Shown: piece by piece, positions 17,027-50,810 of the stretch
Layout: the number at the start of each line of letters is the position of its first letter
How positions within the stretch are numbered: the stretch's first letter is position 1
Origin: a bacterium
GTDB lineage: Bacteria > Hinthialibacterota > Hinthialibacteria > Hinthialibacterales > Hinthialibacteraceae
Assembly: GCA_963663405.2 (NCBI GenBank)
Contig: CAXXSM010000110.1
Location: 1-64,000, forward strand
DNA: 64,000 nucleotides
Direction of reading: 5' to 3'
Position numbers and translations under genes: made by a program
Notes under the pieces: generated by a model
The model's database searches: none
What the model was told of the DNA's origin: nothing
What the model saw: the letters and a program-made list of their open reading frames with translations, nothing else

Positions 17027-17030
17027 GACC

Positions 17031-23960: not shown

Positions 23961-23977
23961 GTGAGCGACACCTATTG

Positions 23978-25438: not shown

Positions 25439-26018
25439 CGGAATAACTCCATTTTTGATGAAAAAGGGTTTTCAATTTTGAGCGCGCGCGCCGCAGACGA
25501 CTATTCACAGCCTCAAAATGGATCGAAAGAATGCTTGCGATTTCTTCTCTTGGAATTTGTTCGATATAGTATAACGTTAAAATTTCCCGGTCTTTTCTCG
25601 ACAACCGGAAAAATATTTGTAGGGCTAAATAATTTTTCTCCTTCTCATCGAGTCTTTCGCACGGAGTCGTAACCGGTTCCGCGTCATTTCCTTTACGGCG
25701 AAATATCCGGATAATGCGCTCCCGCCGGATATGGTTGATACTCAAATGACGCGCAATTTGGAACAGAAGAGCGCGAACATTGAAGATGGTCTTTCCTTTC
25801 AACACATAATTGGTCCACAGCGACAGAAACGAGTCATGCACTATATCATCCACTTCTTCAATATTCCCAGTTTGTGCAACCACATATTTCCGCATTGAAT
25901 CCTGGTACAAACCGATTATTTTCCGGAACGCATATTCAGATCCTGCGCCTAACAGCTTTTCCAGGCTCAAATGTGATGATTGAATAGTTTCCTCATGAAA
26001 TTTCGGATTCGTTTCCAT
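25431..26018 (-). CDS. ECF sigma factor
   Basis: DDIVHDSFLSLW, LFQIARHLSINHIRR, LSRKDREILTLYY...EEIASIL...VNSRLRRAR. Confidence 0.9.
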   Translation of the reverse strand: METNPKFHEETIQSSHLSLEKLLGAGSEYAFRKIIGLYQDSMRKYVVAQTGNIEEVDDIVHDSFLSLWTNYVLKGKTIFNVRALLFQIARHLSINHIRRERIIRIFRRKGNDAEPVTTPCERLDEKEKNYLALQIFFRLSRKDREILTLYYIEQIPREEIASILSIHFEAVNSRLRRARSKLKTLFHQKWSYSDE

Positions 26019-26111
26019 TCTAAAGACCAATATGAGTAACGCGATCAATAAAGGGCACTTCGACTATTAGTTTTATTCGTATATAAAAACGATTACACCA
26101 ATCCATATTGA

Positions 26112-30430: not shown

Positions 30431-30647
30431 GATGTTTCCTCCATCTTTATTTATAAAAAGAAGCGGGAAGAAATGACCAGATATTTCAATTGAGCAAATC
30501 CACACGAAGGAATTCTCTATTGCTGAGGATTGGATTGGAAATCTATGATAAGCGAGATCAGCAAAACCTGTTTGTAGCAAATTTGATTCATTTAAAAACC
30601 GAAACATTTAAATACAGGTTCATCACTACTTTATAGAAACAACACCC

Positions 30648-34322: not shown

Positions 34323-34503
34323 TTGTATCCTCCGGCTAACTGGCCACCCTTGGACCAGTTGGCTGGAGGATCTCATCGAAGTAAGTAAAAGCATGAAATA
34401 ATTCAGAGAATCCAGCTGGATTATGTCCACGAATAATTTTCTATATGAAAGATAATTCCTCAAAAAAAGGGGATTTCTCCCCTTCAATTCATCGCAATCA
34501 ATC

Positions 34504-34854
34504 CTACCGTAAGAATAGAAAATACCAGCGTCGTTTTGACTTCTGGTTTTCCGTTTCACGATGAATACGCTGACGTTCCAGTTCTGAAAGCTTATGACCG
34601 ATTTCTTCTGTGGTTTCTTCCTGAGCAACAGCGCGATAGGCGGTGACGCTTTTGAAGATGACCGGTTGATACTTGGCTTCGACGATATCGATCAGTTCGA
34701 GGATTGCTGCGCCGATTCGAGCAGCTTTGACATGCTCTTGGAGATCGTTGAAGTGACTATCGAAAATCGATTGTTCGGTCAGGATATCTCGCAGTCCTCG
34801 GCCTACATTTCGATTCGATTTTGCGTTAGCTGTTTTACTACCGTTATTATTCAT
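34504..34854 (-). CDS. Hypothetical protein
   Basis: RBS AAAGGA. Co-oriented gene in the operon. Confidence 0.6.
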   Translation of the reverse strand: MNNNGSKTANAKSNRNVGRGLRDILTEQSIFDSHFNDLQEHVKAARIGAAILELIDIVEAKYQPVIFKSVTAYRAVAQEETTEEIGHKLSELERQRIHRETENQKSKRRWYFLFLR

Positions 34855-35389: not shown

Positions 35390-37270
35390 TTATTTGCGGT
35401 TTCTGCGGAGTAATTCAGAAAACTTCGTGTAGAACGCTTTAGGAAGTTCTGGCAGGTTTTGAACGACTACGTTCTCTTTGAAGAAATTCTTTACGTAATC
35501 CGCTTGGATGCCAACGGCCACACACTCGATTCCGGCCTTTTCACATTTACGCAGGTTCTCTTCGAGATGTTTAATGACAGCTATCTGCATCGTTGGATTC
35601 CCGCTGTATGGTTCTCCATCCGTGAGAACAAGGATGATCTTTCGGGTTTCCTTCCGGATGACGATACGTTTTGCAGTGAAAATAATGGCGTCATCGATGG
35701 GTGTGTATTCCAGGGCGTTCATAGCAGGAACGCGAGGCTTCAGCGCCCGGAATGGTTCGTCGAACGCCTTAAAGATGGAATAGACGCAGGGAAAGAAGCG
35801 GGTATAGAGTTTGGAGAGTTGCTGCAAATCCATCCCCGTTTCCCGTGTCAATCGGGCGAAGGCCCGTTTGGAAGGCTCAGTCGTGAAGCCGATTACCTCG
35901 GAGGGGATACGCAGCTGGTTGAGTGTTTCAGCGAATAGGATGGCGACTTGGCGAGCCAGGTAGATGCGTGGGCCATTCATCGAACCGGACAGATCAACAA
36001 GAAGCGACACCGCTACCGAATCGGATTCGCATTCTTGGATTTGCCGAAAGACTTTGTTCGAGCCCTGATTGAGCAGCGCATAAAGCTTTTTGCTGTTGAC
36101 CTGGCCTTCTTCCCGATCGTTGACCCAGAACCGGGTATCGCGCGAACGGAGAGTTCGAATCAACTGTTGCCGAAGAGCGCCGACATGAGGCCGAACAGCA
36201 TTGCTCAAGTTTTGATAAGTTTCACCGTTATCCAATGATAGAGGCGTAACAGCTTTATCCAGCGATGGATCGTATACCCGGTAGGCTTGGTTTGTTCCAT
36301 CACTGAATTCTTCTTGGACTTGCTCTCTGATAGTTCTCTGGAGCTCGAATGGATGGCCGGTGGATGAGTATTGTCCGGCTAAGGCCTGATCCATCGCGCC
36401 TTTATTTCCATTCTCAGAATCATCTGATGGACTACTTTTCGAGTTCGAGTGTTCATCCGAGTTCGAACCATCTTGTTGATCCATAGAATCATCCTTTTGT
36501 CCCTCGGAACCGTTTTGCCGATTGTCAGATTCTTCTTGACCACCAGAGGAAGAGGATTTTGTTGATCGCTGATCCTTGTCTATTGGTTCTTGCTTGGATT
36601 CACCAGATGAGGATTGTAACTGTGATTCTCGATTCTTTTCCGTACTATTTGGTTGTTTTGAATTTGAAGGTTGACTTTCTTGCTCAGCTTTATACTTGAG
36701 GCGTTCCAGGATACTTTCCGCCATTGCGCAGGCTTCGTCAGTGTTATGGAGGGATTTGAACCGCTCCGCTTCGTTCTTGAATTGTTCCACCATTCCGATC
36801 GCGTCTTCGCCATACTGGTCATAGGGCAGATCCATTCCAGTAAGGAACAGACCACACAAGAACCGGACTGGGAGAGGCATTTGATCGATGGGATGAGTGC
36901 GAGTGATCTCTGCGACGCTGTGCAGGATGTTGTGACGTGAGCCCGGATATTCCTTCTGCATGGCGTAATTGACGCGCACATCTTCGATGACATTAAGCGT
37001 ATCAAATCCGAAATCGCCCCATTTCTGTTTGAAATTCTTCATGCGGCCATCAAAGTCGCTGAAGAGGATATGGGCGGTCTCATGATCCAACTCACCACGG
37101 ACCAAACTCCATAACGACTCAGAGATCTCGTCTGGCAACGCCGGCAGCCAGATGGTCCGGCCGTCGGTCTTGCATTCGTTTCCTTTGCATTGGACTGAGA
37201 TGTTGTACTTACGGGACAAGATTCGTCCAACGCGTTCCAAGGTGGTTTCTAATCCGTATTGATTCTTCAT
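35390..37270 (-). CDS. CobT-like vWA protein (MGE type)
   Basis: TDGRTIWLP, DHETAH, NVIEDVRV, low-complexity S/Q/D linker, LLVDLSGSM, LVLTDGEP. Confidence 0.87.
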   Translation of the reverse strand: MKNQYGLETTLERVGRILSRKYNISVQCKGNECKTDGRTIWLPALPDEISESLWSLVRGELDHETAHILFSDFDGRMKNFKQKWGDFGFDTLNVIEDVRVNYAMQKEYPGSRHNILHSVAEITRTHPIDQMPLPVRFLCGLFLTGMDLPYDQYGEDAIGMVEQFKNEAERFKSLHNTDEACAMAESILERLKYKAEQESQPSNSKQPNSTEKNRESQLQSSSGESKQEPIDKDQRSTKSSSSGGQEESDNRQNGSEGQKDDSMDQQDGSNSDEHSNSKSSPSDDSENGNKGAMDQALAGQYSSTGHPFELQRTIREQVQEEFSDGTNQAYRVYDPSLDKAVTPLSLDNGETYQNLSNAVRPHVGALRQQLIRTLRSRDTRFWVNDREEGQVNSKKLYALLNQGSNKVFRQIQECESDSVAVSLLVDLSGSMNGPRIYLARQVAILFAETLNQLRIPSEVIGFTTEPSKRAFARLTRETGMDLQQLSKLYTRFFPCVYSIFKAFDEPFRALKPRVPAMNALEYTPIDDAIIFTAKRIVIRKETRKIILVLTDGEPYSGNPTMQIAVIKHLEENLRKCEKAGIECVAVGIQADYVKNFFKENVVVQNLPELPKAFYTKFSELLRRNRK

Positions 37271-38361
37271 GATTCATTCGCTCCTTTCTGTGTAGGATTC
37301 ATGAGATCTCCCAGGCGCCGCTGCGCGATTTCTTCAACGACGCGCCGGTCATCTCGGGAGAGCTTGTTGAGAACGGTGAGTTCCAACGCTTTGGTCAGGT
37401 TACCGAGTTGATCGTATTTCCTGGCGAAAGCGAGCAAGCGACGGGTGGAAAAACTGCAATAACACTCTTCGCGTTCCGCCGCTTCGCGGACCTGGCGGGC
37501 GTATTTCACCAGACGTCTGATGTCGGTCTTTTTCAGGCTGGAGACTTTTTGAGAGAGGATTTCGGTCTCGGTTTTCTCATCTGGGTAGTCCAGATAGATG
37601 ACTGTGTCAAACCGGTCTTTGAAGGCTTCGTTCAAAATCTGCGTTCCAGCGTACAATCCAGACTCATCTCCATTACCGATCGTATTGGCGGTGGCGATGA
37701 TGCGAAAATCGGGATGGGGAGCGATTATCTCGCCGTCTTTTTCGAGAAGCGTGAGTTTGCCGCATTCTTCGAGCACGCTTTGGAGCACAAATAAAATATT
37801 TGGCAGAGCCGCGTCGATCTCATCGAGCAGCAGCCAATCACCGTTTTTCATGGCAGTGGGCAGGATGCCCTCGCTGTAAACCATTTCTTTGCCACGAACG
37901 GTCCAGCGGCCCAAGAAATCAGAGACCGTAGTCTCGCCATTCAGGTTGCAGCGCCGCAAAGGAGTATTGGTCTGGGCGGCGAGCTGCATGACCAGCGAAC
38001 TTTTTCCTGTGCCGGTCGGACCGACGATCATCACGTTTTCCTGGTGGTTAATGGAGTGGATCAGGTAAGCGGCCTCGGGCGGGAATTGGTAATGCGGATC
38101 AGAGTTAGGCACTATCGGATTTGCGCCATTTCTCTTTTTGAGCGCCGCGTCATGAATCCGGAACTCTGCTGTGGCTTGTATCGGTGTTCGTTTGACGGTT
38201 TTGCCGGATTGGATCTGATTGAGCAATGCCGGAGCCACCAGAGGCGCGCCAGGGTATTGCTTCAGGTACTCTTGCGCCGTTGTGCGGTGACATTCACCGA
38301 GGTGACCATACAAAGCGCCATGGATTGACTCTCCACAAAGTTGACAGGTGATAGTATTCAT
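37267..38361 (-). CDS. CobS/CbbQ-like MoxR AAA+ ATPase with N-terminal C2H2-type finger
   Basis: CQLC...H...H, GPTGTGKS, LLDEID, IIATANT, NEAFKDRF, FSTRRL. Confidence 0.9.
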   Translation of the reverse strand: MNTITCQLCGESIHGALYGHLGECHRTTAQEYLKQYPGAPLVAPALLNQIQSGKTVKRTPIQATAEFRIHDAALKKRNGANPIVPNSDPHYQFPPEAAYLIHSINHQENVMIVGPTGTGKSSLVMQLAAQTNTPLRRCNLNGETTVSDFLGRWTVRGKEMVYSEGILPTAMKNGDWLLLDEIDAALPNILFVLQSVLEECGKLTLLEKDGEIIAPHPDFRIIATANTIGNGDESGLYAGTQILNEAFKDRFDTVIYLDYPDEKTETEILSQKVSSLKKTDIRRLVKYARQVREAAEREECYCSFSTRRLLAFARKYDQLGNLTKALELTVLNKLSRDDRRVVEEIAQRRLGDLMNPTQKGANES

Positions 38362-38378
38362 CTCGTTTTCCTTTCTAA

Positions 38379-38410
38379 TAAAAAAATCCCGGCAGACGCC
38401 GGGGCTGTTT
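38379..38410 (-). terminator. Terminator-like hairpin
   Basis: Minus strand CCCGGC-GTCT-GCCGGG followed by a T tract. Confidence 0.55.
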
Positions 38411-38460
38411 CGTTTGCAGGCTTTACGCCCTTTTTCATTTGTTTGAACTGTGGAATCGGA

Positions 38461-38697
38461 TCATTGGATCTTGATTCCAGGATCGGTGAAATTTTTCTCA
38501 CAGTTTTGACAGTAGAGATATTCCATTACCGGATTGATTCCATCCTCGACAGACTCGATTTCCTCTTCCGCCCAAATCAAACCGCAATCATCCTGGTAGA
38601 GATTGCGATAGATGCTGGAGGGAAGCACGACACAGAGCTGGATGCGTTTCACATCTTCATTTCCACAATGCGGGCATTGGATTTCTTTGATACACAT
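38461..38697 (-). CDS. Small Zn-ribbon protein
   Basis: CPHC...CQNC. RBS AAGGA. Confidence 0.7.
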   Translation of the reverse strand: MCIKEIQCPHCGNEDVKRIQLCVVLPSSIYRNLYQDDCGLIWAEEEIESVEDGINPVMEYLYCQNCEKNFTDPGIKIQ

Positions 38698-38741
38698 TTC
38701 ATTTTTCCTTTCTTTGATTGATGTGGTTTACGGTTAAATTG

Positions 38742-38779
38742 AAAAAGACCGGACAGAACTTGGTTCCATCCGGCCTTTT
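38742..38779 (-). terminator. Terminator-like hairpin
   Basis: aaaagaccgga...tccggcctttt inverted repeat with A/T tails. Confidence 0.5.
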
Positions 38780-38904
38780 GCCTATGAATTGATTCAAATA
38801 GAACTAATCAACATCGATGTCATTGATGTTGAGTTAGCGCATCATCTTTGCGGGGGAAGGATAACTTGTAGGATGAATCGAGGAATGAGAAAAAGGAAAG
38901 AGAA

Positions 38905-39342
38905 TTACTCACTTTCCCAGACGGAAACCATGCAGGGATCGCCTTCTTCGTCCATCTCCGTTTCCTCGCGTAGCTCTTGCTCGGTGAGATTGTCCACGTC
39001 GTAATCCTGGACACGGATTCTTACGCCAGCGGGGATGTTTTGGATATCCTGGATAACACCGCCGCGCACAAAGACGGTCACTTCATCCAATTCGATGACT
39101 GTAACATTCTTGATAGCCCGGCAACCTATCATCGCTATTCCTTCGTTGTGAAAGGCAGCCATGATTTCGCGTTCGTCCTCCGCATCATCCGCGTACATCG
39201 CAGCGAGTTCCTTGTAAGCTTGATCTTCTTTGTTTTCACCATCCGATTTTATGAAGATCGTCTCACAGTACTCGTGTTCTCCATCCACGATAGTGTAATG
39301 GACCTTCATCGTTCGATTTTCTTTTCTTGTGGTGTTTTTCAT
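38905..39342 (-). CDS. Acidic hypothetical protein (phage/ICE-like)
   Basis: RBS AAGGAGGT. VFVRGGVIQDI...VQDYD motif. Confidence 0.72.
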   Translation of the reverse strand: MKNTTRKENRTMKVHYTIVDGEHEYCETIFIKSDGENKEDQAYKELAAMYADDAEDEREIMAAFHNEGIAMIGCRAIKNVTVIELDEVTVFVRGGVIQDIQNIPAGVRIRVQDYDVDNLTEQELREETEMDEEGDPCMVSVWESE

Positions 39343-39375
39343 TGTTTTGATACCTCCTTCTTTTTTTTCATTGAA

Positions 39376-39639
39376 CTAGTAATCCTCTGGAAAAATCAAC
39401 GACACCAGATTTTGGCCATCGGTTCCGGCTCCTTCATCCAGGATGCCCCACAACCGGCGCCCGTTGATCTGGACGATCCACAGGTTGGGATTGGCTGGAT
39501 CGGGAACCTTCATCTTCTCAAAGAGAATCGTGAACGCGTGATGGATTTCTTCTGGTGTCAATGTTTCGTATACAGCTCGTGACACAACAGTTTGGGATTG
39601 GACTTCTACGGTACTGCTTGTTCGATTGGTTTCTTTCAT
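39376..39639 (-). CDS. Small plasmid-type hypothetical protein
   Basis: RBS GGAGGT. C-terminal LIFPEDY. Confidence 0.7.
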   Translation of the reverse strand: MKETNRTSSTVEVQSQTVVSRAVYETLTPEEIHHAFTILFEKMKVPDPANPNLWIVQINGRRLWGILDEGAGTDGQNLVSLIFPEDY

Positions 39640-40137
39640 TTTGGAACCTCCATTGTTATGGTTGAGGCAAAACGGCCTGGCAGGCCAGTATCTGCCCTGC
39701 CTGGTTGTTTTGCTATTTGGATTCGGTTTTGAATAGAAAATGCGATCGGATTGATCGAGAAGAGATGCAGAGAGTATTCACTAGGCGAATCTCGCCATTT
39801 TACGTTTCTCGACGGGAATGTCCCGTATGGATTTCATGTCTTGACCACAGACCGTTCGTTCGCTGTTCAACGGTTTGTTGGGACAAACCGGATACGGACA
39901 AAGGTTTCATGCGGTCTTTTTTTGGTCTTCCAACCTGAAAGTCATCTCATTTTCCTGGCGGAAAAGATTCTACTTTCGGATGGTGTTTTGTTGTTCTTGC
40001 GCAGAAGTGAATTCCCTCCGGTTTATAAATCTTCCGGTTTTGAGCGTTTGGACAACTCTCTTTTGAGAGGATTGTTGTACCTCTTGAGTGACTGCAAACC
40101 GTAACCTTTAAATAGTAGTGACAATTCTCCTTGCTCC

Positions 40138-40311
40138 ATGAAACGAATCACACCCCACACACCGGATGAAGAAATCGCCGATTGGATTGAAGAACAGCTC
40201 AAAGAAGTCAACCTAAAAGTCGAACACATTATTTACCGGCTGCGGTATGAAGATCCACGCATTTGGTTGGCTGAGAACGAGCGAAAAGATAAGAACCTAA
40301 AGAAATATTAA
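40138..40311 (+). CDS. Possible 57-aa protein absent from the ORF track
   Basis: MKRITPHTPDEEIADWIEEQLKEVNLKVEHIIYRLRYEDPRIW... looks protein-like. RBS is weak. Confidence 0.4.
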   Translation: MKRITPHTPDEEIADWIEEQLKEVNLKVEHIIYRLRYEDPRIWLAENERKDKNLKKY

Positions 40312-40679
40312 TCTCTGGATGGGATTGTTTTTTCACCCCTGCCTTTTCGATCAAAATAGACGGTTTCTGAACGAATTCATTTTTTCTTCCTTGTTAAAAT
40401 TTCGTGACTTATCATATGAGGACCATCCAAAAATGACCTCCTACCAAAAACCGTGCGAAAGCGTGGAATTTGAGTTCAATGGGGCAGGGGGACAAGCGAA
40501 CTCCAACTAAAAGATTGAAAAATATGCAGTTTTCTTGCGGAATGGGATGAAATTTTAGGAGGGTATATACCTTTACTATCGTGTAGGCTGTCCATTGAAC
40601 TTATGCATATGACTTTCTCGACGAGAAACATGAATTGAACTCATTTTTTGGTTATTTTACAGCAATCAAAAGAGAATTC

Positions 40680-41093
40680 TCAAAGGTAAAATATCAAATC
40701 CCGTTCTTTCTGTTCCTGGACGGAATCCTTCTTCTGTCGGAAATTCAGAACCAGATTGGCCACTTTCACTAACGCCCGGGGAAACTTGTTGGAAAACACC
40801 CAGCCTTCCCGATAGCCGTATGTCTTGTTAAACCGGGAGACGTGATCGATCAGCCCCATCCGCCGCATTTTGGCGCGAACCGTTTCCAAACTCCGGCGGC
40901 TCAATCCCAGTTGATCTACAATCGGATCCAGGACCGGTAAGAACTGATCCTTGGCCCATTTCAGTTCCACGAAGATCGAGAGAAAAATCTTTTGATGATT
41001 AGAGTTATCCGGAAAGAGAATTCTCGCCAACTCATCCGCGGATTCCAACCGGGATATCGTGTTATGGTTAGTCTCGATTTTTGTGGAAGCCAT
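40680..41093 (-). CDS. Hypothetical wHTH-like protein
   Basis: LGLSRRSLETVRAKMRRMGLID. Tight operon spacing. Confidence 0.72.
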   Translation of the reverse strand: MASTKIETNHNTISRLESADELARILFPDNSNHQKIFLSIFVELKWAKDQFLPVLDPIVDQLGLSRRSLETVRAKMRRMGLIDHVSRFNKTYGYREGWVFSNKFPRALVKVANLVLNFRQKKDSVQEQKERDLIFYL

Positions 41094-41094
41094 T

Positions 41095-41487
41095 TTATTT
41101 AGGGCGGTAGGATCGATTAGCTTGATTGACTCGTTTGCGTAATGTCACTCGTTCTTTCGCGATTTCAAGCGCCTGAGATCGTAGGTATGAGCCAAAATTG
41201 GATTCCAACCAATAGATCGTTGTATACGCGTTCACGTAAATATCGTTGAATAACCGTTGGAATCTCCAGCGGACTCCCTGGCGGGTCATGCCAAACACGC
41301 GCTCTATTTTCATCCCGTAATTCTTGTGCAATACCAATGTTTTTGGATCGGTCTTCTTCAGTTCAATGGATAGATCGTTCTCCTCAAACAGACCTTTCAA
41401 CCGTTGGATGAACTCCAAATCCTTTTGTGTCAGTTTCACTTTTCTTTTAAGGATTGATGTTCTATTTAAGGTTTTCGATCTCCTCAT
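41095..41487 (-). CDS. Basic hypothetical protein, possible HTH
   Basis: FGMTRQGVRWRF. Start uncertain. Confidence 0.65.
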   Translation of the reverse strand: MRRSKTLNRTSILKRKVKLTQKDLEFIQRLKGLFEENDLSIELKKTDPKTLVLHKNYGMKIERVFGMTRQGVRWRFQRLFNDIYVNAYTTIYWLESNFGSYLRSQALEIAKERVTLRKRVNQANRSYRPK

Positions 41488-42235
41488 CGAAATCCCGTTT
41501 AAACACCCAGATATCGTTCCCCTCTTGCCGCAAATGGACTTGCCGGTCATGTTCCATGAATATCAGTGTAATAAACCGCCAGATTCGATCCTTCGGTGTG
41601 GAAGGATGCAACGCCGGTATCTGTGAAAAGAGCACACTGCGCTGGTTTACAAGAGCAGAGATGGCGCGCTGGTAATCGGTCATGCAGAACGTTTCCGAAC
41701 GGTCATATGCAAACTCATCATTCCCCGTTTCGGCGCCGATCAACCGATCCAAATCTTGTTCCAATCCTGGGATGGTGTCCAATTGGGGATAGTCCTCCAA
41801 TTCCAGTTCTTTCGAATGAGAATCCCTTAGCTGTTTTCTCATCCTGTCGCGGTACAGTTGTTTCCGTTCGCGTGATTCTTTCATTCGCTCTCTAAAATAA
41901 TCCGCGTCGAACAGCCGTTCATCAAAGAGAAATCTGGACGGAACGGTAGCGCCGCATTGCGTACAGGCGTAATGATACACTTTCTTCGTTAGCCTGGCTT
42001 TGCAGCAGGGGCTTGATTGAAATTCGATTGTCGGATCGAGTTGAACACCGCAGGAACATCGCCATGTCGTAGGAGAGAGAACCTTCATCTTTTGGCCGCA
42101 TTGGGGGCACCGGTAGCGCATCCGCAGCACCGCCACGTAAAAATCCCGCGCAATAGTCTGGATTGTTGTCACTCGATCGTGAACACGGTCGATCGCCGCA
42201 ATCAGAGGATTTGGATTCCTTCGTGGAATGAGCAT
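41462..42235 (-). CDS. Double Zn-ribbon protein with ScpA-like C-terminal winged helix
   Basis: CPQC, CSCG, SPCC, CTQC. C-terminal FITLIFMEHDRQVHLRQEGNDIWV. Confidence 0.72.
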   Translation of the reverse strand: MLIPRRNPNPLIAAIDRVHDRVTTIQTIARDFYVAVLRMRYRCPQCGQKMKVLSPTTWRCSCGVQLDPTIEFQSSPCCKARLTKKVYHYACTQCGATVPSRFLFDERLFDADYFRERMKESRERKQLYRDRMRKQLRDSHSKELELEDYPQLDTIPGLEQDLDRLIGAETGNDEFAYDRSETFCMTDYQRAISALVNQRSVLFSQIPALHPSTPKDRIWRFITLIFMEHDRQVHLRQEGNDIWVFKRDFDEEIENLK

Positions 42236-42487
42236 GCCATTGGGGATATGCGCAAAGCATATAGATGTTTCGGTTGGAAAAACGAAAGGTTTATATAGAT
42301 GTCGAGACCTATTGTTTTACAGGTGATCAAGTATGGAAGAACTATTTGAATGTCCTTATTGTACATCGTCTAACACAATTTGGCGGGGTTATCGTAAATT
42401 GAAAGAAGGGCGAGTCAGAATTCGCCAATGCAAATCCTGTAAGCGGCGATTCACTCCCAGAAAACAACCGGAATATGGTGATGAACC

Positions 42488-42796
42488 ATGAATGGAATAG
42501 CCGCTAAACCGGAGATGGAATTCAAAGCCGGCGCGGTTCGCGCCGCTATCTGGATGAATCCACATCAATCCGCCGATGGGAAATTGTTTACCAGCGCGAA
42601 AGTCGTGGTGGAACGGATCTACAAGGATGAGAGCGGCCATTTTAAAAGCACACACCGTCTCGATACCAATGATATCCCCAAGGCGATCCTGGTTCTCAAA
42701 AAGGCGTTCGAAGTGCTTACGCTCAAAAAACCGGAGCCAGGATATCAGCCGACACAGTCTTCTCTCCATCCATCGATCCCTAACCGTCTACCATGA
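42488..42796 (+). CDS. Small conserved protein, putative ssDNA-binding (PC4/SSB-like)
   Basis: GAVRAAIWMN...VERIYKD..G.FKST...NDIPKAILVLKKA. Function inferred. Confidence 0.68.
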   Translation: MNGIAAKPEMEFKAGAVRAAIWMNPHQSADGKLFTSAKVVVERIYKDESGHFKSTHRLDTNDIPKAILVLKKAFEVLTLKKPEPGYQPTQSSLHPSIPNRLP

Positions 42797-43032
42797 ATCC
42801 CCGCTTTGAAGATCGGACTTTCTTGGCGAGTGAACCACTGGATTGGATTATGATTCAAAGAATCAGAGATCTGCGAAATCTTGCTGATGCGAGCCATGAT
42901 CGATTGAGAGAATTACGACGGGAGCCCCAAAAGAATTCTTTGGAGATCCGGTTTGAAGAAACTGTTCTTCATTCGACCTTACGAACGATTGAGAAAATGG
43001 AACATTCATTGTTTCTGGAAAGGAATGACTAA
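42793..43032 (+). CDS. Small coiled-coil protein
   Basis: ATGA overlap with the upstream gene. Confidence 0.55.
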   Translation: MNPRFEDRTFLASEPLDWIMIQRIRDLRNLADASHDRLRELRREPQKNSLEIRFEETVLHSTLRTIEKMEHSLFLERND

Positions 43033-44301
43033 AGATTTTGCCCGCAGGTCTTGAAGACCTTTTGGACGACTTTTTCTGGAAGAGAGGAAGACAGTTCCCG
43101 GGTTTTTTCCGTACCGCCCCTTTGAGATTACCCTGGCGTTGATTAAACCGTAGATGTCCAAAAAACTGACGATATCAGAGAATCGCCGCTGTGTGAGTGT
43201 CCGCACATTCCGCTGGTCACAGATGGATCGATAAATATCATAAGCGGGCCCGGTCCAGAGTTTTTCTCGTGAGTTATGCAAGCCAGTATAGCAAGCCAAG
43301 AGAGCGCATTTCTGTTGAGGCGCGAGAGCTTGGATTAACTGCTCGGTCTTGTCGATCTCCAACAAGGAATCCGCCTCATCCACTTCACGCACACCCAGAT
43401 AACCGGTCGAATCTTCGGCGATTTTGACTCCTTTGACTAACAACTCGATGGCTTTGCGCGCGTCTCCATTCTCCCGTGACGCGTATGCGGCGATTTTGCG
43501 GATCGACGCGGGATCGACTTTCCGGATGTCGAGGGCTTTCTCCACCCGGAGATTTAAGATTTCAATCAGATCCATGGCGTCGTAGGGCTCAAAAATAATA
43601 TCCGTCTTTTTGAGCACGGAGAGAATTCGAGGATCCAAGGTTTTGTCCCATTCGATTCGATTGGTCAGCAAGAGATAAAATAAGCGGACGGGAACCCGTT
43701 TGGGCAATGTTTTGGCTAAAAACGTGTAAAAGAGATCGCTGTTGGAGGTGACATTGTCGACCTCGTCCATCACAATGCAGACCAAGTTATGGCGGGCCGT
43801 CAGCGCCCGGATGACGGTCTCTTGCATCTGGTCTAACGCGATGCCTTTGCGGTACCGTTTGGTTGTCCCATCCAAGGATAAGGCCAGCTCGTTCAACGCG
43901 CCAAAACAGGTTTTCGGAGTGGTGAGATCGACGTAATAATACTGAAACTGAATCTGTTTGGCGCCGCACATGGAAGCCAGAGCGTTGAGGAAATGTAAGC
44001 AGGTGACCGATTTGCCCGCGCCGGAAGGGCCGTAGATCAGGAGATTGGCCGGCGAATCACCGGCCAGAACGGGTGATAAGTATTTGGCTAATCGATGCAG
44101 TTGTTGTTGGCGAATGTTGCGTTGAAAGATCTCTTTTAGAACCGTTACCCGTTCGGATTCCGTCAGTTTTTCATCATCGAGATAGGAAGGATTCAGCGTG
44201 ATTTTCTTGTCTTCGATATGAAGAAACGCTTCTTGAATCAGGGATTCTGTGCTCGTTGTCGAGGTGGATGGTTCGGTTCCATAGGAAATCTTCTGACTCA
44301 T
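43029..44301 (-). CDS. cdc6: Orc1/Cdc6-family replication initiator (archaeal type)
   Basis: NLLIYGPSGAGKS, VMDEVD, LDPRILS, FEPYDAMDLIEILNLRV, GDARKAIELL and winged helix LTQRRFSDIVSFLDIYGLINARVISKGRYG. Removing one base of the A-run near 43105 restores KTREL and a stop at 43029. Confidence 0.9.
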
Positions 44302-45058
44302 GCCGTATAGGAAGGCCTCTTTCAATATTTAAATTTTTTCTTGTCCTGAAGGAGTGATAACAGAGAACTGGGAGGGAAGATTTCCTGTGGAACGCAATTA
44401 TAAAATAAGGTTCATCCGGAAATTGGGCACATCGATTGAATTTTTAATAAAAAGTGTAATCGAAAGCCCTATGGATCGTGACGTGTCTGTGGACAAATCT
44501 ATCGATATTGCCCACAGCCACTTGGATAACGATAAAGCCGTTATCCACACGCTCCACAGTTATACGGATAATACCAATTCTATTTTTTTCTTTGTTAATA
44601 ACTGATTGAATATTCTATACTTAAGAATCTTGAAAAACTTGCTAAGATTTAAAGAAATCCTTGTATTGATCATTTTAAAAAACAGATTGCAAAACACCCA
44701 ATAATCAATATTCCGATAGTCTATTCAAAGATTAGATAATCATAGAATAAGATACACAAATATTTGACAGATTACTTTTGACATTTAACAGATCACGGAG
44801 TATCGATGCTTTTTTCCTAGGAAATTTGAGGTATCACAATGATAAAACTTACAAAAAATGGTGAAATTTCCTAAGAAAAAACGCAATGCGCCCAATTTCC
44901 GGATGAGCCTAAAATAAGTTGTTTATTACTTCTTTTATTACATACTATATAGAAAACAAAAACAAACATTCAAATTCAAAAATTTTCATACATATCACAA
45001 TTGAAAATGAGTTTCCACAGGAAATCTCCTCTCATGGTTCGACCAATTTCCAATGAAT
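44277..45058. other. Putative replication origin: mini-ORB-like repeats, DnaA boxes and an AT-rich tract
   Basis: About 8 copies of a 13-mer ending GGAAAT in both orientations. Perfect TTATCCACA at 44541-44549 plus degenerate boxes. AT-rich 44575-44790. Confidence 0.7.
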
Positions 45059-45079
45059 TTCCAATCGTAACATTTATAT

Positions 45080-46327
45080 TTGAGTAGGAACAAATATGAA
45101 TCCATGATTGGAAATCGAATGGCAAATGGGATAGATCATCACGCGTGGACATTCACAAGATCGTCAGTTCCCAATGGATTCTCTGCTTTGACTCAGTGGG
45201 ATACTATCCTCGATCCAACCCATGTTTATCTTCGTCATTCTAACATCATCGATTTTTTCATTTTTGCTCTTATTTTCATCGGAATCGCTCATTTCAGTCT
45301 CCGAAAGAGATTTCCTGGTAGAGCAGGAAGAGCGGTCAGTTTGGGGATTGGATTGGTTCTGGCCTTTTCTATGATTTCTGCGGAAAAGAGATATCAATTT
45401 ACTCTCACTTCATTTGGTACGGTGGCAATTGTCATTTTAACTCTTCTGTTTGGGATTATGGTCTACCAGATTTTTTCGTATTTAAAAATAAGTTCGATTC
45501 TATCTTTTCTTTTAACCTTGGTTGTGATGATGTTGGTAGTTACAACCATCGATCCTTATTTGAATGATCTGGCAAGCGCTATCATTCCTTTTTTGTATCC
45601 ATTGCTCGTAATCGCATTTCTTGTCTCTTTGGTGAAAGCGCTTGCAAAGATTAGTGCCAGGAGTCCGAGTGAAGCTCTGAAAGTCAAATTACATAAACTC
45701 TCCTACAACGATCCCGATCGAATCACCAACAAGAAATTATCCGATGAAGCGAATTCTTTGAAGAAAGTCGGTATTCCTGGAATCAAAAAAATGCAGTCTA
45801 GCATGAAACAGATGAAGACATCGTTTGATGAACTGGATTCTTCCATTCAACATTACGGAGGGAATCCTCGGGCCCGATCCTTGCTCGCTCAGAAAATACA
45901 AATGACGTTTCAATCGAACCGTTATTTGAAAAAATCACTGGATTCTCTTAAAACACTCAATGAACGTCTCCTGGCTCTGGATTCCAGTCTGTTTTCTGCA
46001 AAACAGCGCCAACTGATGGACAAAATGAGTCTAAAAGAACGGAGGAAATTGAAGAAAGAGATACTGGATGAACAGCAAAAGGTTGGATTGGAATCGGAGA
46101 TCGAGGAGTTAGAAACGAGGATTGAGAATCGGGAAATCGCGATTAATCAATCGTTGCGTGATTCCATGAGAAATCTACTGGCTGGAAGAATAGAGGAAGC
46201 GCTCAAGAAGATTCGAATAGCGAGAGTCTGGAAGAAAGAAGGCTATTTGATCGCCCAGCGGATTCAGGATTTGGAAAAGAAAATTTTGAGGATAAGCCTT
46301 TTGGATATCGATCGAACGAAAATTTAA
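45080..46327 (+). CDS. Multi-pass membrane protein with long basic coiled-coil C-terminus
   Basis: About 5 hydrophobic segments followed by a K/E/L-rich coiled coil. Start uncertain. Confidence 0.75.
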   Translation: MSRNKYESMIGNRMANGIDHHAWTFTRSSVPNGFSALTQWDTILDPTHVYLRHSNIIDFFIFALIFIGIAHFSLRKRFPGRAGRAVSLGIGLVLAFSMISAEKRYQFTLTSFGTVAIVILTLLFGIMVYQIFSYLKISSILSFLLTLVVMMLVVTTIDPYLNDLASAIIPFLYPLLVIAFLVSLVKALAKISARSPSEALKVKLHKLSYNDPDRITNKKLSDEANSLKKVGIPGIKKMQSSMKQMKTSFDELDSSIQHYGGNPRARSLLAQKIQMTFQSNRYLKKSLDSLKTLNERLLALDSSLFSAKQRQLMDKMSLKERRKLKKEILDEQQKVGLESEIEELETRIENREIAINQSLRDSMRNLLAGRIEEALKKIRIARVWKKEGYLIAQRIQDLEKKILRISLLDIDRTKI

Positions 46328-46339
46328 CTGGTTAGTAAA

Positions 46340-46990
46340 TCAGCGGTTTTGCACGGTCAAAATCGCATTCATGATCTCACGCATGCGTTCAATTGTATCG
46401 ACCTGATGAGAATCCCTGTGATGATACATCACATCAATCCCAGCAAAGAGATTCCGATGAAGACTTTCCACTTGATACAGATTCTGCTTATCCGCTTCCA
46501 GAACTAGGACAAAACGATATTCATTCTCCCAACCTTGTATCTTCATATGTGGCCGGGCGCGGAGGAAATACTCCTCCGCCCGGTGAACTTGCCGGATGGC
46601 TTCCCCAATATCGTAGAGTCGAGGTTTCATTTCACAGATCAACCATGTCGATCTTTTCTGATCCGCAGAATCTTTCCGAAGCACAACATCAATCACGCCC
46701 CGATCCCCATAATGGTTGTACATGATCTCACAGCCAACCAGGGAGTAATGTTTTAACTTCATCGCCTCAATGAAATTCTGTGTAAATGCGGCGTGTTGAT
46801 GGTCTTTTGTGGAAGGCATTTTCTCATGAGACCAAAGTAAGAATGTATGATTTATAAAACTTTGGATTTTACAAGGTGTGTATTCATAACTCGATTGATT
46901 GAGTAATCGATGCCGGTCAGGATGGTAAACAGGATTGTGTCTATTCGGTGGAATTCGTGGTATGATGATTTTCTCAAGTCTTGCATTCAT
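46340..46990 (-). CDS. PD-(D/E)xK nuclease-fold protein
   Basis: E...GVIDVV...ICEMKP...IGEAIRQV. The true start may be 46819. Confidence 0.62.
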   Translation of the reverse strand: MNARLEKIIIPRIPPNRHNPVYHPDRHRLLNQSSYEYTPCKIQSFINHTFLLWSHEKMPSTKDHQHAAFTQNFIEAMKLKHYSLVGCEIMYNHYGDRGVIDVVLRKDSADQKRSTWLICEMKPRLYDIGEAIRQVHRAEEYFLRARPHMKIQGWENEYRFVLVLEADKQNLYQVESLHRNLFAGIDVMYHHRDSHQVDTIERMREIMNAILTVQNR

Positions 46991-47304
46991 TGACCTTTTT
47001 AGTTTGAATGACTGATTATTTTCAATAAATCGTCATAAACCTTTGTTTTTGAGTGATTTGAGCGTTCATTTCTTTGAAATATAAGGTACACGGATGCAAA
47101 ATCGGCATACATATATAGATATTATATGAGATCAAATTTAATAATTAATGAGTTAAACTTTTTATAATAGGGTATATATAATACTAAATTATTCAAAAAA
47201 TACTCTAACCTTGTGTATTCTCAATTCAAGCAATTTTCCCCTTAAATCAAAAATTTGTTGTGATATCTTATACGTATATTTCGGAGTGATTTTGGAGGAA
47301 AATC

Positions 47305-48411
47305 ATGGCTGATCAAACCCGAAAAAAGAAGATTAAGAGAGTCTATGGAACCGGTTGTCTTTATCAGAGGAATGGGTTTTGGTATGTCAGTTTTCGTCAT
47401 GAAGGTAAACAGTTGGTTCGCGCGGTTGTAGAGCCGAGTACGAAACGGCGGGCGGTGAATAAAATACAAGCCGAAAAATGGGCTCAGGAAATGATGTATC
47501 GAATTTCCCATGGCGAAAAAGGCGCATTGGAAGATCGGATTAAGAAAAAGAATTTGATTTTACTCCAAGAACTTGATGAAGCTTATTGTCAGGCGTTTGA
47601 AGAACAATGGGATGAAAAACGAAGAGTCCATCACCGGAATGTCATAGGGCGGTTTACGAAACGCTTTACTCATATTCGTGATATTACACATGAATCGCTT
47701 GGTCAATACGTGGAAGAACGCAAAAGTCCATCATCCCGTGGTACGATTCGTTCAAACGCAACAATCAACAGAGAACTATCAGAATTACGAAGGATTCTTA
47801 ATTGGGCTTTGCAAGTTGACCTCATTGAGAGAAATCCATTTCTTGGATTTAAACTACTCAAAGAAGAAAACCACCGGGAGAGAATTTTAACGGATGAAGA
47901 ATTACAACGCTTACTTGCGACTCTCAAGAAGAAAGAATTCTCGGATTTTCGTCCAATTGTGTTGATTGCGTTGTATATGGGGATGCGGCGGGGCGAGATC
48001 ATTAATTTGAAATGGTCGGATGTTGATGAAACGAAACAAGAATTCGATCTACTCAAAACCAAAAATGGAAAACGCCGGAGGCTTCCAATCCCCGATATCG
48101 TATGGAAGGAATTGAGAAAGATCAAAAGGAATTCTGAATACATCTTTGCGTCACCAAGGAATCCAGAGCAACCACGAAAAAAGATATGGAATCGTTGGAC
48201 AGCGCTATTGAAAGCTAGTAAGATAGACAACTTTCGCTTCCATGATGCTCGCCACTGGTGTGCATCAAATTTGTTACGAAATGGCGCCGATCTCGCAGTC
48301 GTGAAGGAGATTCTTGGGCATACGACTATCGTGACGACCAGCCGATATTTGAATGTTCTTCAAAAGGAGAAGAAGACTGCGTTGGATGACTTAGAAAGAA
48401 AATTCACTTGA
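47305..48411 (+). CDS. Tyrosine recombinase/phage-type integrase
   Basis: GMRRGEI, KTKNGK, FRFHDARH, ILGH, TSRY. SAM-like ATINRELSELR. Confidence 0.95.
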   Translation: MADQTRKKKIKRVYGTGCLYQRNGFWYVSFRHEGKQLVRAVVEPSTKRRAVNKIQAEKWAQEMMYRISHGEKGALEDRIKKKNLILLQELDEAYCQAFEEQWDEKRRVHHRNVIGRFTKRFTHIRDITHESLGQYVEERKSPSSRGTIRSNATINRELSELRRILNWALQVDLIERNPFLGFKLLKEENHRERILTDEELQRLLATLKKKEFSDFRPIVLIALYMGMRRGEIINLKWSDVDETKQEFDLLKTKNGKRRRLPIPDIVWKELRKIKRNSEYIFASPRNPEQPRKKIWNRWTALLKASKIDNFRFHDARHWCASNLLRNGADLAVVKEILGHTTIVTTSRYLNVLQKEKKTALDDLERKFT

Positions 48412-48632
48412 TCTTGATTAAATATATGGGCATGGAAACAATCTTGACCAATGTTTTTCAAATGGCGCCTATCCAAGTTGTATAAAACTTGATATATCCT
48501 CTTCTAGATGGTTCTAACTCGTACATATTTTAGTCAACATAAAATGATTGAGCAAACACCGTTAATCAATCTAGTGAATTTTCGTTAAATACTAGGTGTA
48601 CAGAATTCCCTATCATCGAATCGAGGTTAAAA

Positions 48633-50810
48633 ATGAAAACAATAAAATCTATCCCTTTCCTTTTGACAATTTGTATCTTGTCAATTACAGAATCTGCTGA
48701 AAAGCAAGAACCATGGTATGAACGCTTACTTATTGGTATGGAGGTTGGCCCAAGTGGTTCACAATTCGGCAGCGATCCGAGTGATGTTGGTTACGCCGTC
48801 AACTTTTCTGGTAAGGATATTGTTCAAACGCTACAGCAAACCGGTTCTCAATATATTGTGATTTGGGGCAAGGATAGTGAGTACGCTTATTACAATTCAA
48901 ATGTCGCTCCACGATGCCCCGGTTTATATGGCCGAGATGTAATTCAGGAAACGATCGACATTGCTAAACCATATAACATACCTGTGATTGTCTATTGTGT
49001 CGTCCAAGGAAATGGTTATCCACTGCGCAATCATCCCGAGTATGATATGAAAGGCATCGATGGCGCCCGTCTTGGGAGAATTTGTTTTAATTCCAATTAT
49101 ATTGAACATGCGAAAGCTGTCTTGAATGAAATGCTCGCATATGATATTGATGGATTGCATATTGACATGCTCGATCAGGGATTCGGCCCACCGTATGGAT
49201 GCTGGTGTGAATCGTGTAAGAAGCTATTTAAAATCGAATATGGGAAAGAAATCCCATCCAGTGTTACTTGGGATGAAGACTGGGATCGGATGTTGGAATT
49301 CCGTTACAATACAAGTGACCGCTTTGAGAAGGAATTATATCGTTATGTCAAATCGATCAAACCCAATGTGACTGTTGATTTTAATTATCATGGTTATCCT
49401 CCCTTCTCTTTTGAATTGGGCCAGCGACCTGTGCAGCATTCGGATAATGGAGATTTTGTAACAGGGGAAACTGGTGTTTGGGGATTCAGCGCTTCAGGCG
49501 TCAGCCAAACAACACGCTTCCTCGCCGCGTCGACACCAGGTCAACGGTATCAAGTCGTGATGCAACGCGGCGTACGGATGTACCACGATCAGACGACACG
49601 TCCTCTTAATGATATGCGTTGGGAGATGTTTACGCTACTAGCGCACGGCGGGCAAGTCACCATGGTCGACAAAACGCCGTATGACGGTTCGCTAGATCGT
49701 GTAGCATATCAACGATTTGAGATACTGTTCAACGAAGCCTTGGCAAAGCGTGAACATTTTGGTCAACCACATTACGCGGAAGTTGGGCTCTATTATTCAC
49801 ACCGGACTCGGGATTGGTACGCGAAGGAAGAAGCCTGGCGCTATCAGCAGAGTTTTAATGGATCTCATGTGGCGTGCGTATACGAGCATATCCCGTATAA
49901 GGTTGTCCTGGATGAAAATCTTGCACTGAATACATTAGAAAAAATATCCACATTGATTCTGCCAAACGCGGCGATTCTTTCCCCACGGGAAATTGCTATC
50001 TTCAAACAATTTGTCAATAACGGCGGTAATCTAATCGTCACTGGCGCAACGGGCATGTATGGTTGGCTAGGACGCCCACAACAAGAAAATTCATTGTCTG
50101 ATTTGATTGGCGCCAAAGCGGTTGAAATACTTCCTTCAATTGACAACCATGTTTGTTTACACAAACTTGATGAGCAAAAAGCGTTATTACTTAAGCAGAT
50201 TCCATTGGATTGGCCATTTCTCGTTAAAGGACCTGCTGTCGCGTATCATCCAACTAAAGCATCAGCCATTGGTGATTTAATGAAACCGCATCGTACCATT
50301 CGACAACAACAAGGCAAAGAAGGAACTGACATGCCCATGTCAGCGGATCGATCCGTTGGCCCAGCCATCCTGATCAACTCCTATGGAAAAGGAAACGTTC
50401 TAACCATTACCTGCTCACCAGGGTATGCCACCGCCAGCGAACATCGCATGACCGAAGATCGCTATTTGTTACGCAACGCCATTCGCTATTTAAATGAAAA
50501 ACCGGAGATTTTGATCGATGCGCCTGTGATTGTTGAAACGGTGACAACAAAGCAAGACAATCGATATCGCATTCATTTTCTTGGGCGCCAAACGCCCGCC
50601 GGCTGGACACCGTCGGTGAATCGCCCCTATGCGCTGCCGACATTGATCGAAGATAAACCATTGTATCGGGCATCTATTGCGTTGAAGAATCCAATCAAGA
50701 ATGCTGCGTGTTACAATGACACAACTGAGTTGAAACAAACATCGGATAAAAGCATCGATCTTTTAATCGATGATATTCATGAAATTGTGATAATAGATAC
50801 TACCCAATAA
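48633..50810 (+). CDS. Secreted glycoside hydrolase-like protein (GHL6/fucosidase-like TIM barrel plus beta-galactosidase trimerisation domain)
   Basis: Signal peptide, YDIDGLHIDM, GCWCESC, LILPNAAILS...FVNNGGNLIVTGATG. Confidence 0.8.
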   Translation: MKTIKSIPFLLTICILSITESAEKQEPWYERLLIGMEVGPSGSQFGSDPSDVGYAVNFSGKDIVQTLQQTGSQYIVIWGKDSEYAYYNSNVAPRCPGLYGRDVIQETIDIAKPYNIPVIVYCVVQGNGYPLRNHPEYDMKGIDGARLGRICFNSNYIEHAKAVLNEMLAYDIDGLHIDMLDQGFGPPYGCWCESCKKLFKIEYGKEIPSSVTWDEDWDRMLEFRYNTSDRFEKELYRYVKSIKPNVTVDFNYHGYPPFSFELGQRPVQHSDNGDFVTGETGVWGFSASGVSQTTRFLAASTPGQRYQVVMQRGVRMYHDQTTRPLNDMRWEMFTLLAHGGQVTMVDKTPYDGSLDRVAYQRFEILFNEALAKREHFGQPHYAEVGLYYSHRTRDWYAKEEAWRYQQSFNGSHVACVYEHIPYKVVLDENLALNTLEKISTLILPNAAILSPREIAIFKQFVNNGGNLIVTGATGMYGWLGRPQQENSLSDLIGAKAVEILPSIDNHVCLHKLDEQKALLLKQIPLDWPFLVKGPAVAYHPTKASAIGDLMKPHRTIRQQQGKEGTDMPMSADRSVGPAILINSYGKGNVLTITCSPGYATASEHRMTEDRYLLRNAIRYLNEKPEILIDAPVIVETVTTKQDNRYRIHFLGRQTPAGWTPSVNRPYALPTLIEDKPLYRASIALKNPIKNAACYNDTTELKQTSDKSIDLLIDDIHEIVIIDTTQ

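Follow-up and report, generated by a model that had tools for sequence, protein, structure and literature searches.

An orc1/cdc6-family gene with ORB-like upstream boxes in a probable integrative element of a bacterium

A stretch of 64,000 nt of bacterial DNA (the window), which is the first 64 kb of a 189-kb contig (C110), was analysed around a gene of the orc1/cdc6 family and the repeated boxes that precede it. The host, of the lineage Hinthialibacterota, was represented by a metagenome-assembled genome (MAG; G000) of 8.44 Mb in 170 contigs, 82% complete and with 2.4% estimated contamination. Orc1/Cdc6, origin recognition box (ORB) origins and MCM belong to archaeal and eukaryotic replication, and DnaA with DnaB is the bacterial counterpart. 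The gene, its boxes (scored in bits with a position weight matrix) and the spacer between them were arranged as follows.

43029–44301, minus strand: orc1/cdc6 gene, ATG at 44301 and stop at 43029 in the frame of the intact paralogs
44274–44299, plus strand: ORB-like box 1, over cdc6 codons 1–9 (27.5 bits)
44370–44395, minus strand: ORB-like box 2 (proximal), ~90 nt upstream of the start codon (33.0 bits)
44919–45009, no strand: most of the AT-rich spacer that separates box 2 from box 3, holding the conserved TTTTCTATAT(T/A)G.AA palindrome
45010–45035, plus strand: ORB-like box 3 (distal), inverted relative to box 2 (30.9 bits)

The orc1/cdc6 gene and its upstream boxes

The gene spanned 1273 nt, equal to 424 codons and one base, and the longest open reading frame (ORF) over this span extended from 43006 to 44325 on the minus strand (439 amino acids, aa). 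The ATG at 44301 is read as the true start, because all paralogs and homologs open with MSQK or MGQK. The 439-aa ORF matched the Pfam families Cdc6_C (7.4e-18), Cdc6_lid (1.4e-10), AAA_16 (7.9e-11) and AAA_22 (3.6e-10), and scored 239.4 bits with NCBIfam TIGR02928 ('orc1/cdc6 family replication initiation protein'), above the curated cut-off of 181.3 bits. All four cdc6 copies of the genome scored 240–248 bits with this model. The top two matches among solved structures were S. solfataricus Cdc6-1 (2qby_A, 1.1e-46) and A. pernix ORC1 (2v1u_A, 9.2e-46), both crystallised on origin DNA, and the alignment with them spanned residues 64–412.

The AAA+ motifs GPSGAGKS (Walker A), DEVD (Walker B), LTN, DPR and GDARKA were present in the translation and invariant in the homolog alignment, in which the N-terminal ~60 residues also carried an invariant LDDEKL motif. 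In the structure-match alignment, the Gly-Ile of the initiator-specific motif (ISM) was aligned with the 'GL' of Orc1-1, and the helix-turn-helix (HTH) 'TQRR' and wing 'GRYGKT(K/R)E' of the winged helix coincided with those of Orc1-1. Residues G120/L121, R341 and R365 of Orc1-1 matter for origin binding, according to PMC3089459. The TQRR motif, the wing and the ISM glycine of the bacterial protein would correspond to R341, R365 and G120/L121, respectively, with an inferred numbering offset. Judged by these matches, the gene encodes a canonical full-length member of the Orc1/Cdc6 family. An earlier note on this DNA had recognised a full AAA+ and winged-helix Cdc6 signature, which the profiles and both structures confirmed; its alternative of a protein outside the family was not borne out by the TIGR02928 score.

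The three boxes of ~24 nt that preceded cdc6 followed the pattern GTTCCAyNGGAAAT with a C-rich tail (GTTCCAyAGGAAATCTyC in the window), and the C-rich tail of box 2 pointed to cdc6. The same motif was found upstream of cdc6 relatives from other phyla. An independent test set comprised 25 of 32 metagenome loci, with L068–L070 and L075 (without a 5′ end) and L076–L078 (23–31% identical) left out. In these 25 loci, TTCCNNNGGAA occurred 26 times in the 13,359 nt that extend from −450 to +100 relative to the gene start, compared with 7 times in the remaining 138,134 nt, and 20 of the 25 had at least one occurrence. A 26-nt weight matrix was applied to 35 loci by leave-one-locus-out at a threshold of ≥14 bits, after L017, which had no 5′ end, was dropped. 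Near the start (18,553 nt) it gave 75 matches, compared with 3 in the other 280,915 nt, and all loci but L016 and L067 (33/35) were box-positive. The layout was constant, with the distal box at −200 to −385 in the '−' orientation and the proximal box at about −90 to −157 in the '+' orientation; a third box was often present at −56 to +22 of the cdc6 start, in the '−' orientation.

The boxes were specific to cdc6. A matrix built from other genomes only gave 19 matches of ≥16 bits in the whole 8.44-Mb host genome. Twelve of them (22.8–34.1 bits, and all those of ≥22.8 bits) were located at cdc6 copies, including a contig-end fragment on C47, and the other seven were singletons of 16.4–21.6 bits. 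The lack of other box clusters genome-wide argues against a wider regulon.

The spacers of the inverted pairs were 94–166 nt long with a GC content of 0.18–0.47, compared with 0.38–0.58 for the loci, and were AT-rich in all 10 two-box loci. In the uninterrupted paralog on contig C141, the spacer between boxes 2 and 3 was 112 nt with a GC content of 0.18. An alignment of 16 upstream regions contained a conserved central TTTTC(T/A)ATAT(T/A)G.AA palindrome in the spacer. Between box 2 and the gene, the 16 loci had two further elements in common, namely a short inverted repeat (CCACT...AGTGG) and, ~50 nt ahead of the start, a TTTAAATA element (for example, within 2225–2485 of L025 and 44303–44369 of the window).

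The archaeal ORB consensus is CTTCCAGTGGAAACGAAAGGGGT and that of the Methanomassiliicoccales is GTTCCAGTGGAAATGG-AGGGGTA, and inverted ORB pairs lie 39–256 nt apart beside orc1/cdc6, as stated in PMC4153887. TTCC and GAA form the perfectly conserved core of the Pyrococcus ORB and mini-ORB repeats (PMC1904270). The 14-nt core of the bacterial boxes was equal to the Methanomassiliicoccales consensus at 12 of 14 positions (GTTCCA..GGAAAT). Two features of an archaeal-type origin were therefore found, namely TTCC...GGAA dyad boxes beside the initiator gene and inverted boxes around an AT-rich region. The G-string 3′ of the dyad, which is contacted by the AAA+ domain, was absent, and the C-rich yTwCyCAC stood where archaeal ORBs read GGGGT.

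The protein could instead be a transcription factor, with the boxes as operators for its own gene, the divergent gene and the maintenance/excision switch of the element. The position of box 1 on the start codon and of box 2 ~90 nt upstream in 33/35 loci fits such a role, as do the TTTAAATA element and the inverted repeat conserved between box 2 and the gene. Archaea have Orc1 paralogs that are not initiators (PMC6061795, PMC9738581 and PMC10123103), and an archaeal Orc1-2 DNA-damage regulator and an Orc1-like switch protein of virus SNJ2 offer a comparison. However, strong boxes occurred nowhere else in the window or the 8.4-Mb genome, which would confine regulation to the regulator itself and its neighbour. 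Structure and sequence both pointed to the initiator paralogs Orc1-1/ORC1 as the best relatives, and an inverted pair enclosing an AT-rich spacer is how an origin is laid out. No sigma-70-like promoter was found in the spacer of the intact copy (0 compared with 2.3 expected in shuffles), although the host may use other promoters. A purely regulatory role is considered rather unlikely on this balance.

Two changes distinguished the window's own copy.

43103–43108, minus strand: A-run with one extra base (A6 in the window, A5 in the paralogs on C141, C4 and C86)
44410–44909, no strand: non-coding insertion of ~500 bp resembling a miniature inverted-repeat transposable element (MITE), bounded by imperfect terminal inverted repeats and by a target duplication of 9 nt

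The extra A would shift the frame after ...GRYGK, so that the last ~25 residues are out of frame. The window copy would thereby lose the invariant T400, R401 and L407, and its ORF runs on to 43006. In other public sequencing runs, one contig each in X4 and X5 lacked one letter at 43103, and no contig of these runs supported the extra base. The frameshift is unconfirmed, because the X4 and X5 contigs could belong to other strains or copies.

The target duplication of the MITE-like repeat, TAAAATAAG, was located at 44401–44409 and 44910–44918. The repeat looks like a recently active element, because copies with 99–100% identity were found on at least eight other contigs (C103, C148, C151, C153, C23, C36, C7 and C73); partial copies were found on C147/C18. 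The insertion divided the AT-rich spacer, which is the putative origin, 13–14 nt from box 2, leaving 44396–44400 and one copy of the 9-nt duplication as the remaining spacer. The cdc6 module of the window is probably impaired by the insertion in its spacer together with the possible C-terminal frameshift. The gene and boxes of the copies on C141 and C4 were intact, and the C86 contig stopped short of the distal box.

Bacterial host and distribution of the Cdc6 clade

The host genome encoded DnaA (541 bits) and DnaB (521 bits). Two extra DnaB-like genes, at C15:4704–6014 and C47:15832–17130, scored 366 and 345 bits, below the DnaB cut-off; contig C47 also ended in a fragment of a cdc6 element ~40 kb from its DnaB-like gene. 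The window contained genes for Ser/Thr kinases and the following bacterial features.

8534–8614, minus strand: c-di-GMP-I-GGC riboswitch (72 bits, gathering score 59)
8744–10345: sigma-54 activator
25431–26048: extracytoplasmic function (ECF) sigma factor, paired with FecR

The bacterial context that the earlier note had read from the activator, the ECF sigma factor and the riboswitch was thus sustained, with DnaA and DnaB in the genome. The riboswitch preceded a gene for a 1093-aa protein with a Peptidase_S74 (endosialidase chaperone) domain, of which diverged paralogs were located on C6, C29, C36 and C64.

True MCM was not found in the 82%-complete host genome by Pfam model search, in which the best match scored 30.5 bits. 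This match is attributed to cross-matching of AAA+ proteins, because all 14 control genomes, bacteria included, also passed the MCM Pfam cut-off. Family scans of the window ORFs recognised no MCM among the proteins of the element. The remark in the same note that no MCM was visible at the locus extends to the 82%-complete genome. A partner MCM gene, expected for an MCM-recruiting initiator, was not found, which leaves the membership of the protein by sequence unaffected.

Four cdc6 copies above the family cut-off were found in the host genome, on contigs C110, C141, C4 and C86, each with bacterial flanks. A misassembly or contamination, with an archaeal fragment joined to bacterial DNA, might be suspected in a MAG of 170 contigs with 2.4% estimated contamination, and the GC content falls across the element. 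This is contradicted by the four copies on four contigs, of which the window contig is 189 kb long, and by homologs with 54–67% identity in bacterial chromosomes of 6.5–9.6 Mb, including a complete isolate genome. The archaeal relatives were merely 23–33% identical. Contigs from three other studies contained the same DNA; within 38000–50000, stretches uncovered by contigs in some public runs carry no information. On these data the cdc6 locus is not an assembly chimera, and the probability left for one is negligible.

Of 8000 candidates scored in a protein search, 456 matched at E ≤ 1e-3. Among the matches listed (best 120 of 456), identities were 55–95% and the named proteins were bacterial (Hydrogenedentes, Thermodesulfobacteriota and delta proteobacterium NaphS2); the NaphS2 homolog was already annotated as 'replication initiation protein, orc1/cdc6 family'. 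Judged by the nearest named relatives, the host would probably belong to the Hydrogenedentota. Of the 15 loci from species genomes, 11 were titled bacterial and shared 54–67% identity, whereas the four archaeal loci shared 25–31%. Among the bacterial loci, one lay on the complete Desulfosarcina variabilis str. Montpellier chromosome and others on MAG chromosomes of 6.5 and 8.2 Mb. The distribution in the host's phylum was patchy, with cdc6 above the cut-off in 5/35 genomes, counting G000.

A search of 1.84 billion cluster representatives gave 2784 relatives at E ≤ 1e-3, of which 146 reached E ≤ 1e-30. The search placed the main bacterial Cdc6 clade in one 50% cluster, next to which stood a few intermediates at 32–45% identity. 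A quick LG+G4 tree of 123 rows, unrooted and without bootstraps, was built from 12 bacterial rows, 7 intermediates, 98 of the 131 representatives P0139–P0269 (those of 370–470 aa were kept) and 6 translated loci; shorter fragments were left out. The 'archaeal' label of most outgroup rows is inferred, the 2 clusters named in look-ups of 20 proteins being a Micrarchaeota Cdc6 and a JGI 'cell division control protein 6'. The bacterial rows formed one clade (Shimodaira–Hasegawa-like approximate likelihood ratio test, SH-aLRT, 99), nested with the intermediates (97). Together they were located in a poorly resolved region with DPANN-type rows (Iainarchaeum and Micrarchaeota) and the loci L083 and L084. 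L083, L084 and L085, from genomes G001, G033 and G034 of the host's class, represented a second bacterial Orc1/Cdc6-like family of ~365 aa, with a full-length TIGR02928 match below the cut-off (107–129 bits) and a long branch near the DPANN-type rows.

AAA+ classifications have recorded occasional bacterial ORC/Cdc6 homologs. In the full-text literature, subscription journals and supplementary files aside, no description of canonical Orc1/Cdc6 with ORB-like boxes in bacteria was found; the papers found dealt with archaeal Orc1/Cdc6, with its archaeal carrier elements, and with the broader ORC-CDC6/STAND clade in defence by bacteria. The window gene is a member of a large bacterial clade, annotated but apparently undescribed, and not a singular case.

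The element and the genes beside cdc6

The cdc6 gene is probably housed in an integrative, mobilisable element of ~24.5 kb, with the following features in addition to the module itself.

23873–23984, no strand: approximate left limit of the element, placed by a switch of paralog homology only
29501–30607, minus strand: Replic_Relax family protein, candidate relaxase (9.1e-20; PHROG 'replication initiation by nicking', 6.6e-12)
31247–33229, plus strand: HerA/FtsK-type (DUF87) ATPase, candidate DNA-transfer motor (CedD-like at 69 bits, far under the cut-off)
33438–34628, minus strand: ArdC-N domain protein
35390–37270, minus strand: CobT-like VWA protein
37267–38361, minus strand: CobS/MoxR-like AAA+ ATPase
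40680–41093, minus strand: p137, conserved partner in 12 loci, winged helix and long C-terminal helix
41095–41439, minus strand: p151, conserved partner in 12 loci, invariant RQGxRWRFxRLF motif
41462–42235, minus strand: ZnR257, conserved partner in 11 loci
42488–42796, plus strand: p102, small conserved protein between cdc6 and ZnR257, in 5 related loci, assigned to no family
45080–46327, plus strand: 415-aa membrane/coiled-coil protein, divergent from cdc6, with weak homologs at the same position in 4 loci
46340–46990: p216, 216-aa protein
47305–48411, plus strand: tyrosine recombinase at the right end of the element (Phage_integrase, 5.3e-32)
48418–48458, no strand: right junction, where contigs of other runs diverge

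The FecR/ECF sigma pair, two large unassigned proteins and several small ORFs were also located within ~23.9–48.45 kb. At the left limit, the copies on C4 and C86 matched from 23984 rightwards, and C141 and C55 matched a different segment ending at 23873. At the right junction, integrase-end contigs of other runs diverged after 48458, and right-flank contigs diverged before 48418/48449. The element was repeated in the host genome at ~88–94% identity (C110, C141, C4 and C86), with further fragments on C161, C55, C47, C38, C27 and C1. Related loci repeated the mobile context of Replic_Relax, HerA/FtsK-like, ArdC-like and integrase genes. The reading of an integrative element in the earlier note was strengthened by the integrase, the Replic_Relax protein and the four copies, while attachment (att) sites were not found. 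No tRNA target was found in the window, and no VirB4 or type IV secretion system (T4SS) set was recognised among the ORFs scanned.

Some neighbouring genes and variants were recorded beside the element. At the D. variabilis locus, a ParA/MinD-type ATPase (L013 8413–9198, minus strand; AAA_31, 1.1e-39) abutted the ORB-like region, which suggests a plasmid-like role in partition. At the right end of the element copy on C4, a 520-aa fusion of Phage_integrase, IS91-type Zn-binding and Y2 transposase parts (L022 6499–8061) stood where the window copy has its tyrosine recombinase. A second repeated segment was located directly left of the cdc6 element and was also present on C141 with ~94% identity (10830 to 23873). 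In it, 10594–16495 held a set of the ubiquitin-like conjugation/defence type, namely a JAB peptidase, an E1-like ThiF protein (PADLOC 'E1-E2', 2.4e-25) and a protein of 994 aa, part of which is a HerA-like ATPase.

ZnR257, p151 and p137 recurred with cdc6 in varying order and orientation among the 40 loci examined, many of which were short contigs. ZnR257 was composed of a long helix, two zinc ribbons (CxxC...CxC and CC...HYxCxxC), a helical linker and, at the C-terminus, a winged helix. The start of p151 is probably the GTG at 41439, which would give ~114 aa, and p137 had a mean column identity of 71% across phyla. None of the three matched any entry in Pfam, PHROGs or PADLOC. The structure model of ZnR257 had a predicted local distance difference test (pLDDT) score of 72 and a predicted template modelling (pTM) score of 0.33, and gave no Foldseek PDB match at E ≤ 1e-3, a search in which the zinc-ribbon half was effectively outside the test. 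Residues 181–257 matched generic winged helices only by VIA-align (Z 8–9). The p137 model (pLDDT 74) gave weak winged-helix matches of the MarR/PadR/TFE-alpha type at E ~1e-3. In Atlas, p137 and p102 fell into bacterial clusters without names, and the RepL and HTH rows (0.91) are no more than leads. A complex prediction of Cdc6 with ZnR257 scored 0.00 without control complexes and counts neither for nor against an interaction. The assignments of p102 as PC4-like and of p216 as a PD-(D/E)XK nuclease were guesses from sequence, backed by no tool, and were dropped.

A role in defence or exclusion was also considered, in which the ATPase would sense foreign DNA and block related incoming elements by occupying their origins. 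ATPases of the ORC-Cdc6/STAND clade recur in bacterial defence (bioRxiv 10.64898/2026.10.19.760177 and PMC12839542), and some related loci had defence-type genes nearby, such as SIR2 and HerA in L009. Against this, Cdc6 and its three partners gave no significant PADLOC match (best 17.6 bits, with a generic P-loop model), and the protein is a canonical Orc1/Cdc6 with the Cdc6_C winged helix, unlike the divergent defence families. Beside cdc6 there was no conserved effector gene or domain, and the cognate boxes sit on Cdc6's own element. Such a role appears improbable.

A putative origin and initiator module and its relation to known systems

The favoured explanation, with a probability of roughly 0.55, is that cdc6 and its boxes serve an integrative, mobilisable element as an autoregulated module of replication origin and initiator. 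The Cdc6 protein would bind the three ORB-like boxes that immediately precede cdc6. Boxes 2 and 3, inverted around the AT-rich spacer with its central palindrome, would correspond to the archaeal origin layout of ORB, unwinding element and ORB beside orc1, and binding at box 1 over the start codon would lead to autorepression. The tyrosine recombinase would excise the element as a circle, which would start its own replication from the module of boxes and cdc6. Cdc6 would then have to hand over to a bacterial helicase, which could be the DnaB of the host or a different motor, since MCM was found in neither element nor host. ZnR257, p151 and p137, which are of DNA-binding type, may mediate this step. 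The fuller version, a cross-domain replicon in which Orc1/Cdc6 fires an ORB-type origin and loads a bacterial helicase via these three proteins, is a tentative proposal, and doubtful as it stands.

Several results weigh against the origin–initiator explanation. A plain autoregulated promoter would account equally well for box 1 over the start codon and for the non-box motifs between box 2 and the gene, and the module of the window copy is interrupted by the MITE-like insertion. The partner trio was present in merely ~11–12 of the 40 loci, and some long loci (L012 and L015) lacked all three. No att direct repeat of ≥13 nt was found between 46900–49000 and 1–30000, and no second copy of the 86-nt right junction was found in the host genome. 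Family and PHROGs scans recognised no helicase, primase or polymerase in the element, which leaves the step after origin binding without identified machinery. No episomal homolog was found: 423 PLSDB plasmid records had a match, all below 60% identity, and among the matches listed (best 40 of 423) all were archaeal with 26–32% identity. The phage collection searched contained no Cdc6 relative. The proposal of the earlier note that the element replicates autonomously via Cdc6 has gained from the conserved ORB-like origin layout and has lost from the lack of an episomal form or a helicase partner among the results; it remains conditional. A small share of probability is also kept for explanations that have not occurred to us.

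A complete initiator and a putative ORB-like origin are kept under selection in bacteria without MCM; Cdc6 was 54–70% identical across phyla and the cis layout was found in 33/35 loci. What is new here is the ORB-like boxes in front of bacterial cdc6, the family itself being already annotated in databases. If the cross-domain replicon is real, it would represent a third initiation route in bacteria beside DnaA and plasmid Rep, spread by integrative elements in Desulfobacterota, Hydrogenedentota, Spirochaetota and others. If the module replicates, the specificity of the hand-over from initiator to helicase between domains would become testable, and a new replicon type would be at hand for poorly tractable anaerobes (Desulfobacterota and Hydrogenedentota). 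If it merely regulates or excludes, it would be a bacterial example of the exaptation of an initiator to a regulator.

When compared with S. solfataricus Orc1-1 (2qby) and A. pernix ORC1 on ORB4 (2v1u), the bacterial Cdc6 shared the AAA+ module with ISM, the lid and the winged helix. The GRYGKT(K/R)E wing and TQRR HTH were identical to those of archaeal Orc1/Cdc6, with a full-length alignment at E ~1e-46. However, the bacterial protein had the LDDEKL N-terminus and ~23–33% identity to archaeal proteins, and it was found in a host with DnaA and DnaB, in which no MCM was found. The GTTCCA..GGAAAT dyad and the inverted pair that encloses AT-rich DNA next to the initiator gene were common to archaeal ORB origins and the bacterial loci, whereas the bacterial boxes were C-rich at the 3′ side, without the G-string, and had a third box on the start codon.

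Haloarchaeal and Methanosarcina plasmids and cryptic integrated elements of Thaumarchaeota (PMC6563490) likewise combine an integrase or plasmid backbone with their own Orc1/Cdc6. The archaeal elements use MCM from the host or encode their own, whereas the bacterial element has neither. Unlike the archaeal ones, it carries Replic_Relax, ArdC, a HerA/FtsK-like ATPase and three partner genes found only in bacteria.

BrxC/BrxD, DUF499, HINPO and the Pfam 'ORC-CDC6-like' orphans belong to the same AAA+ clade and are bacterial and often located on mobile DNA. These proteins score below the Orc1/Cdc6 models and have other C-terminal domains. In contrast to the defence ATPases, the bacterial Cdc6 passed TIGR02928 and Cdc6_C, was accompanied by initiator-type cis sites and had no PADLOC match. 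Iteron-type plasmid Rep proteins, as described in bioRxiv 10.1101/2024.09.03.610885, place a winged helix on repeated sites beside an AT-rich region and their own gene, and are autoregulated. The Rep proteins of this type have no AAA+ module, whereas the bacterial Cdc6 comprises the whole initiator of AAA+ module, ISM, lid and winged helix.

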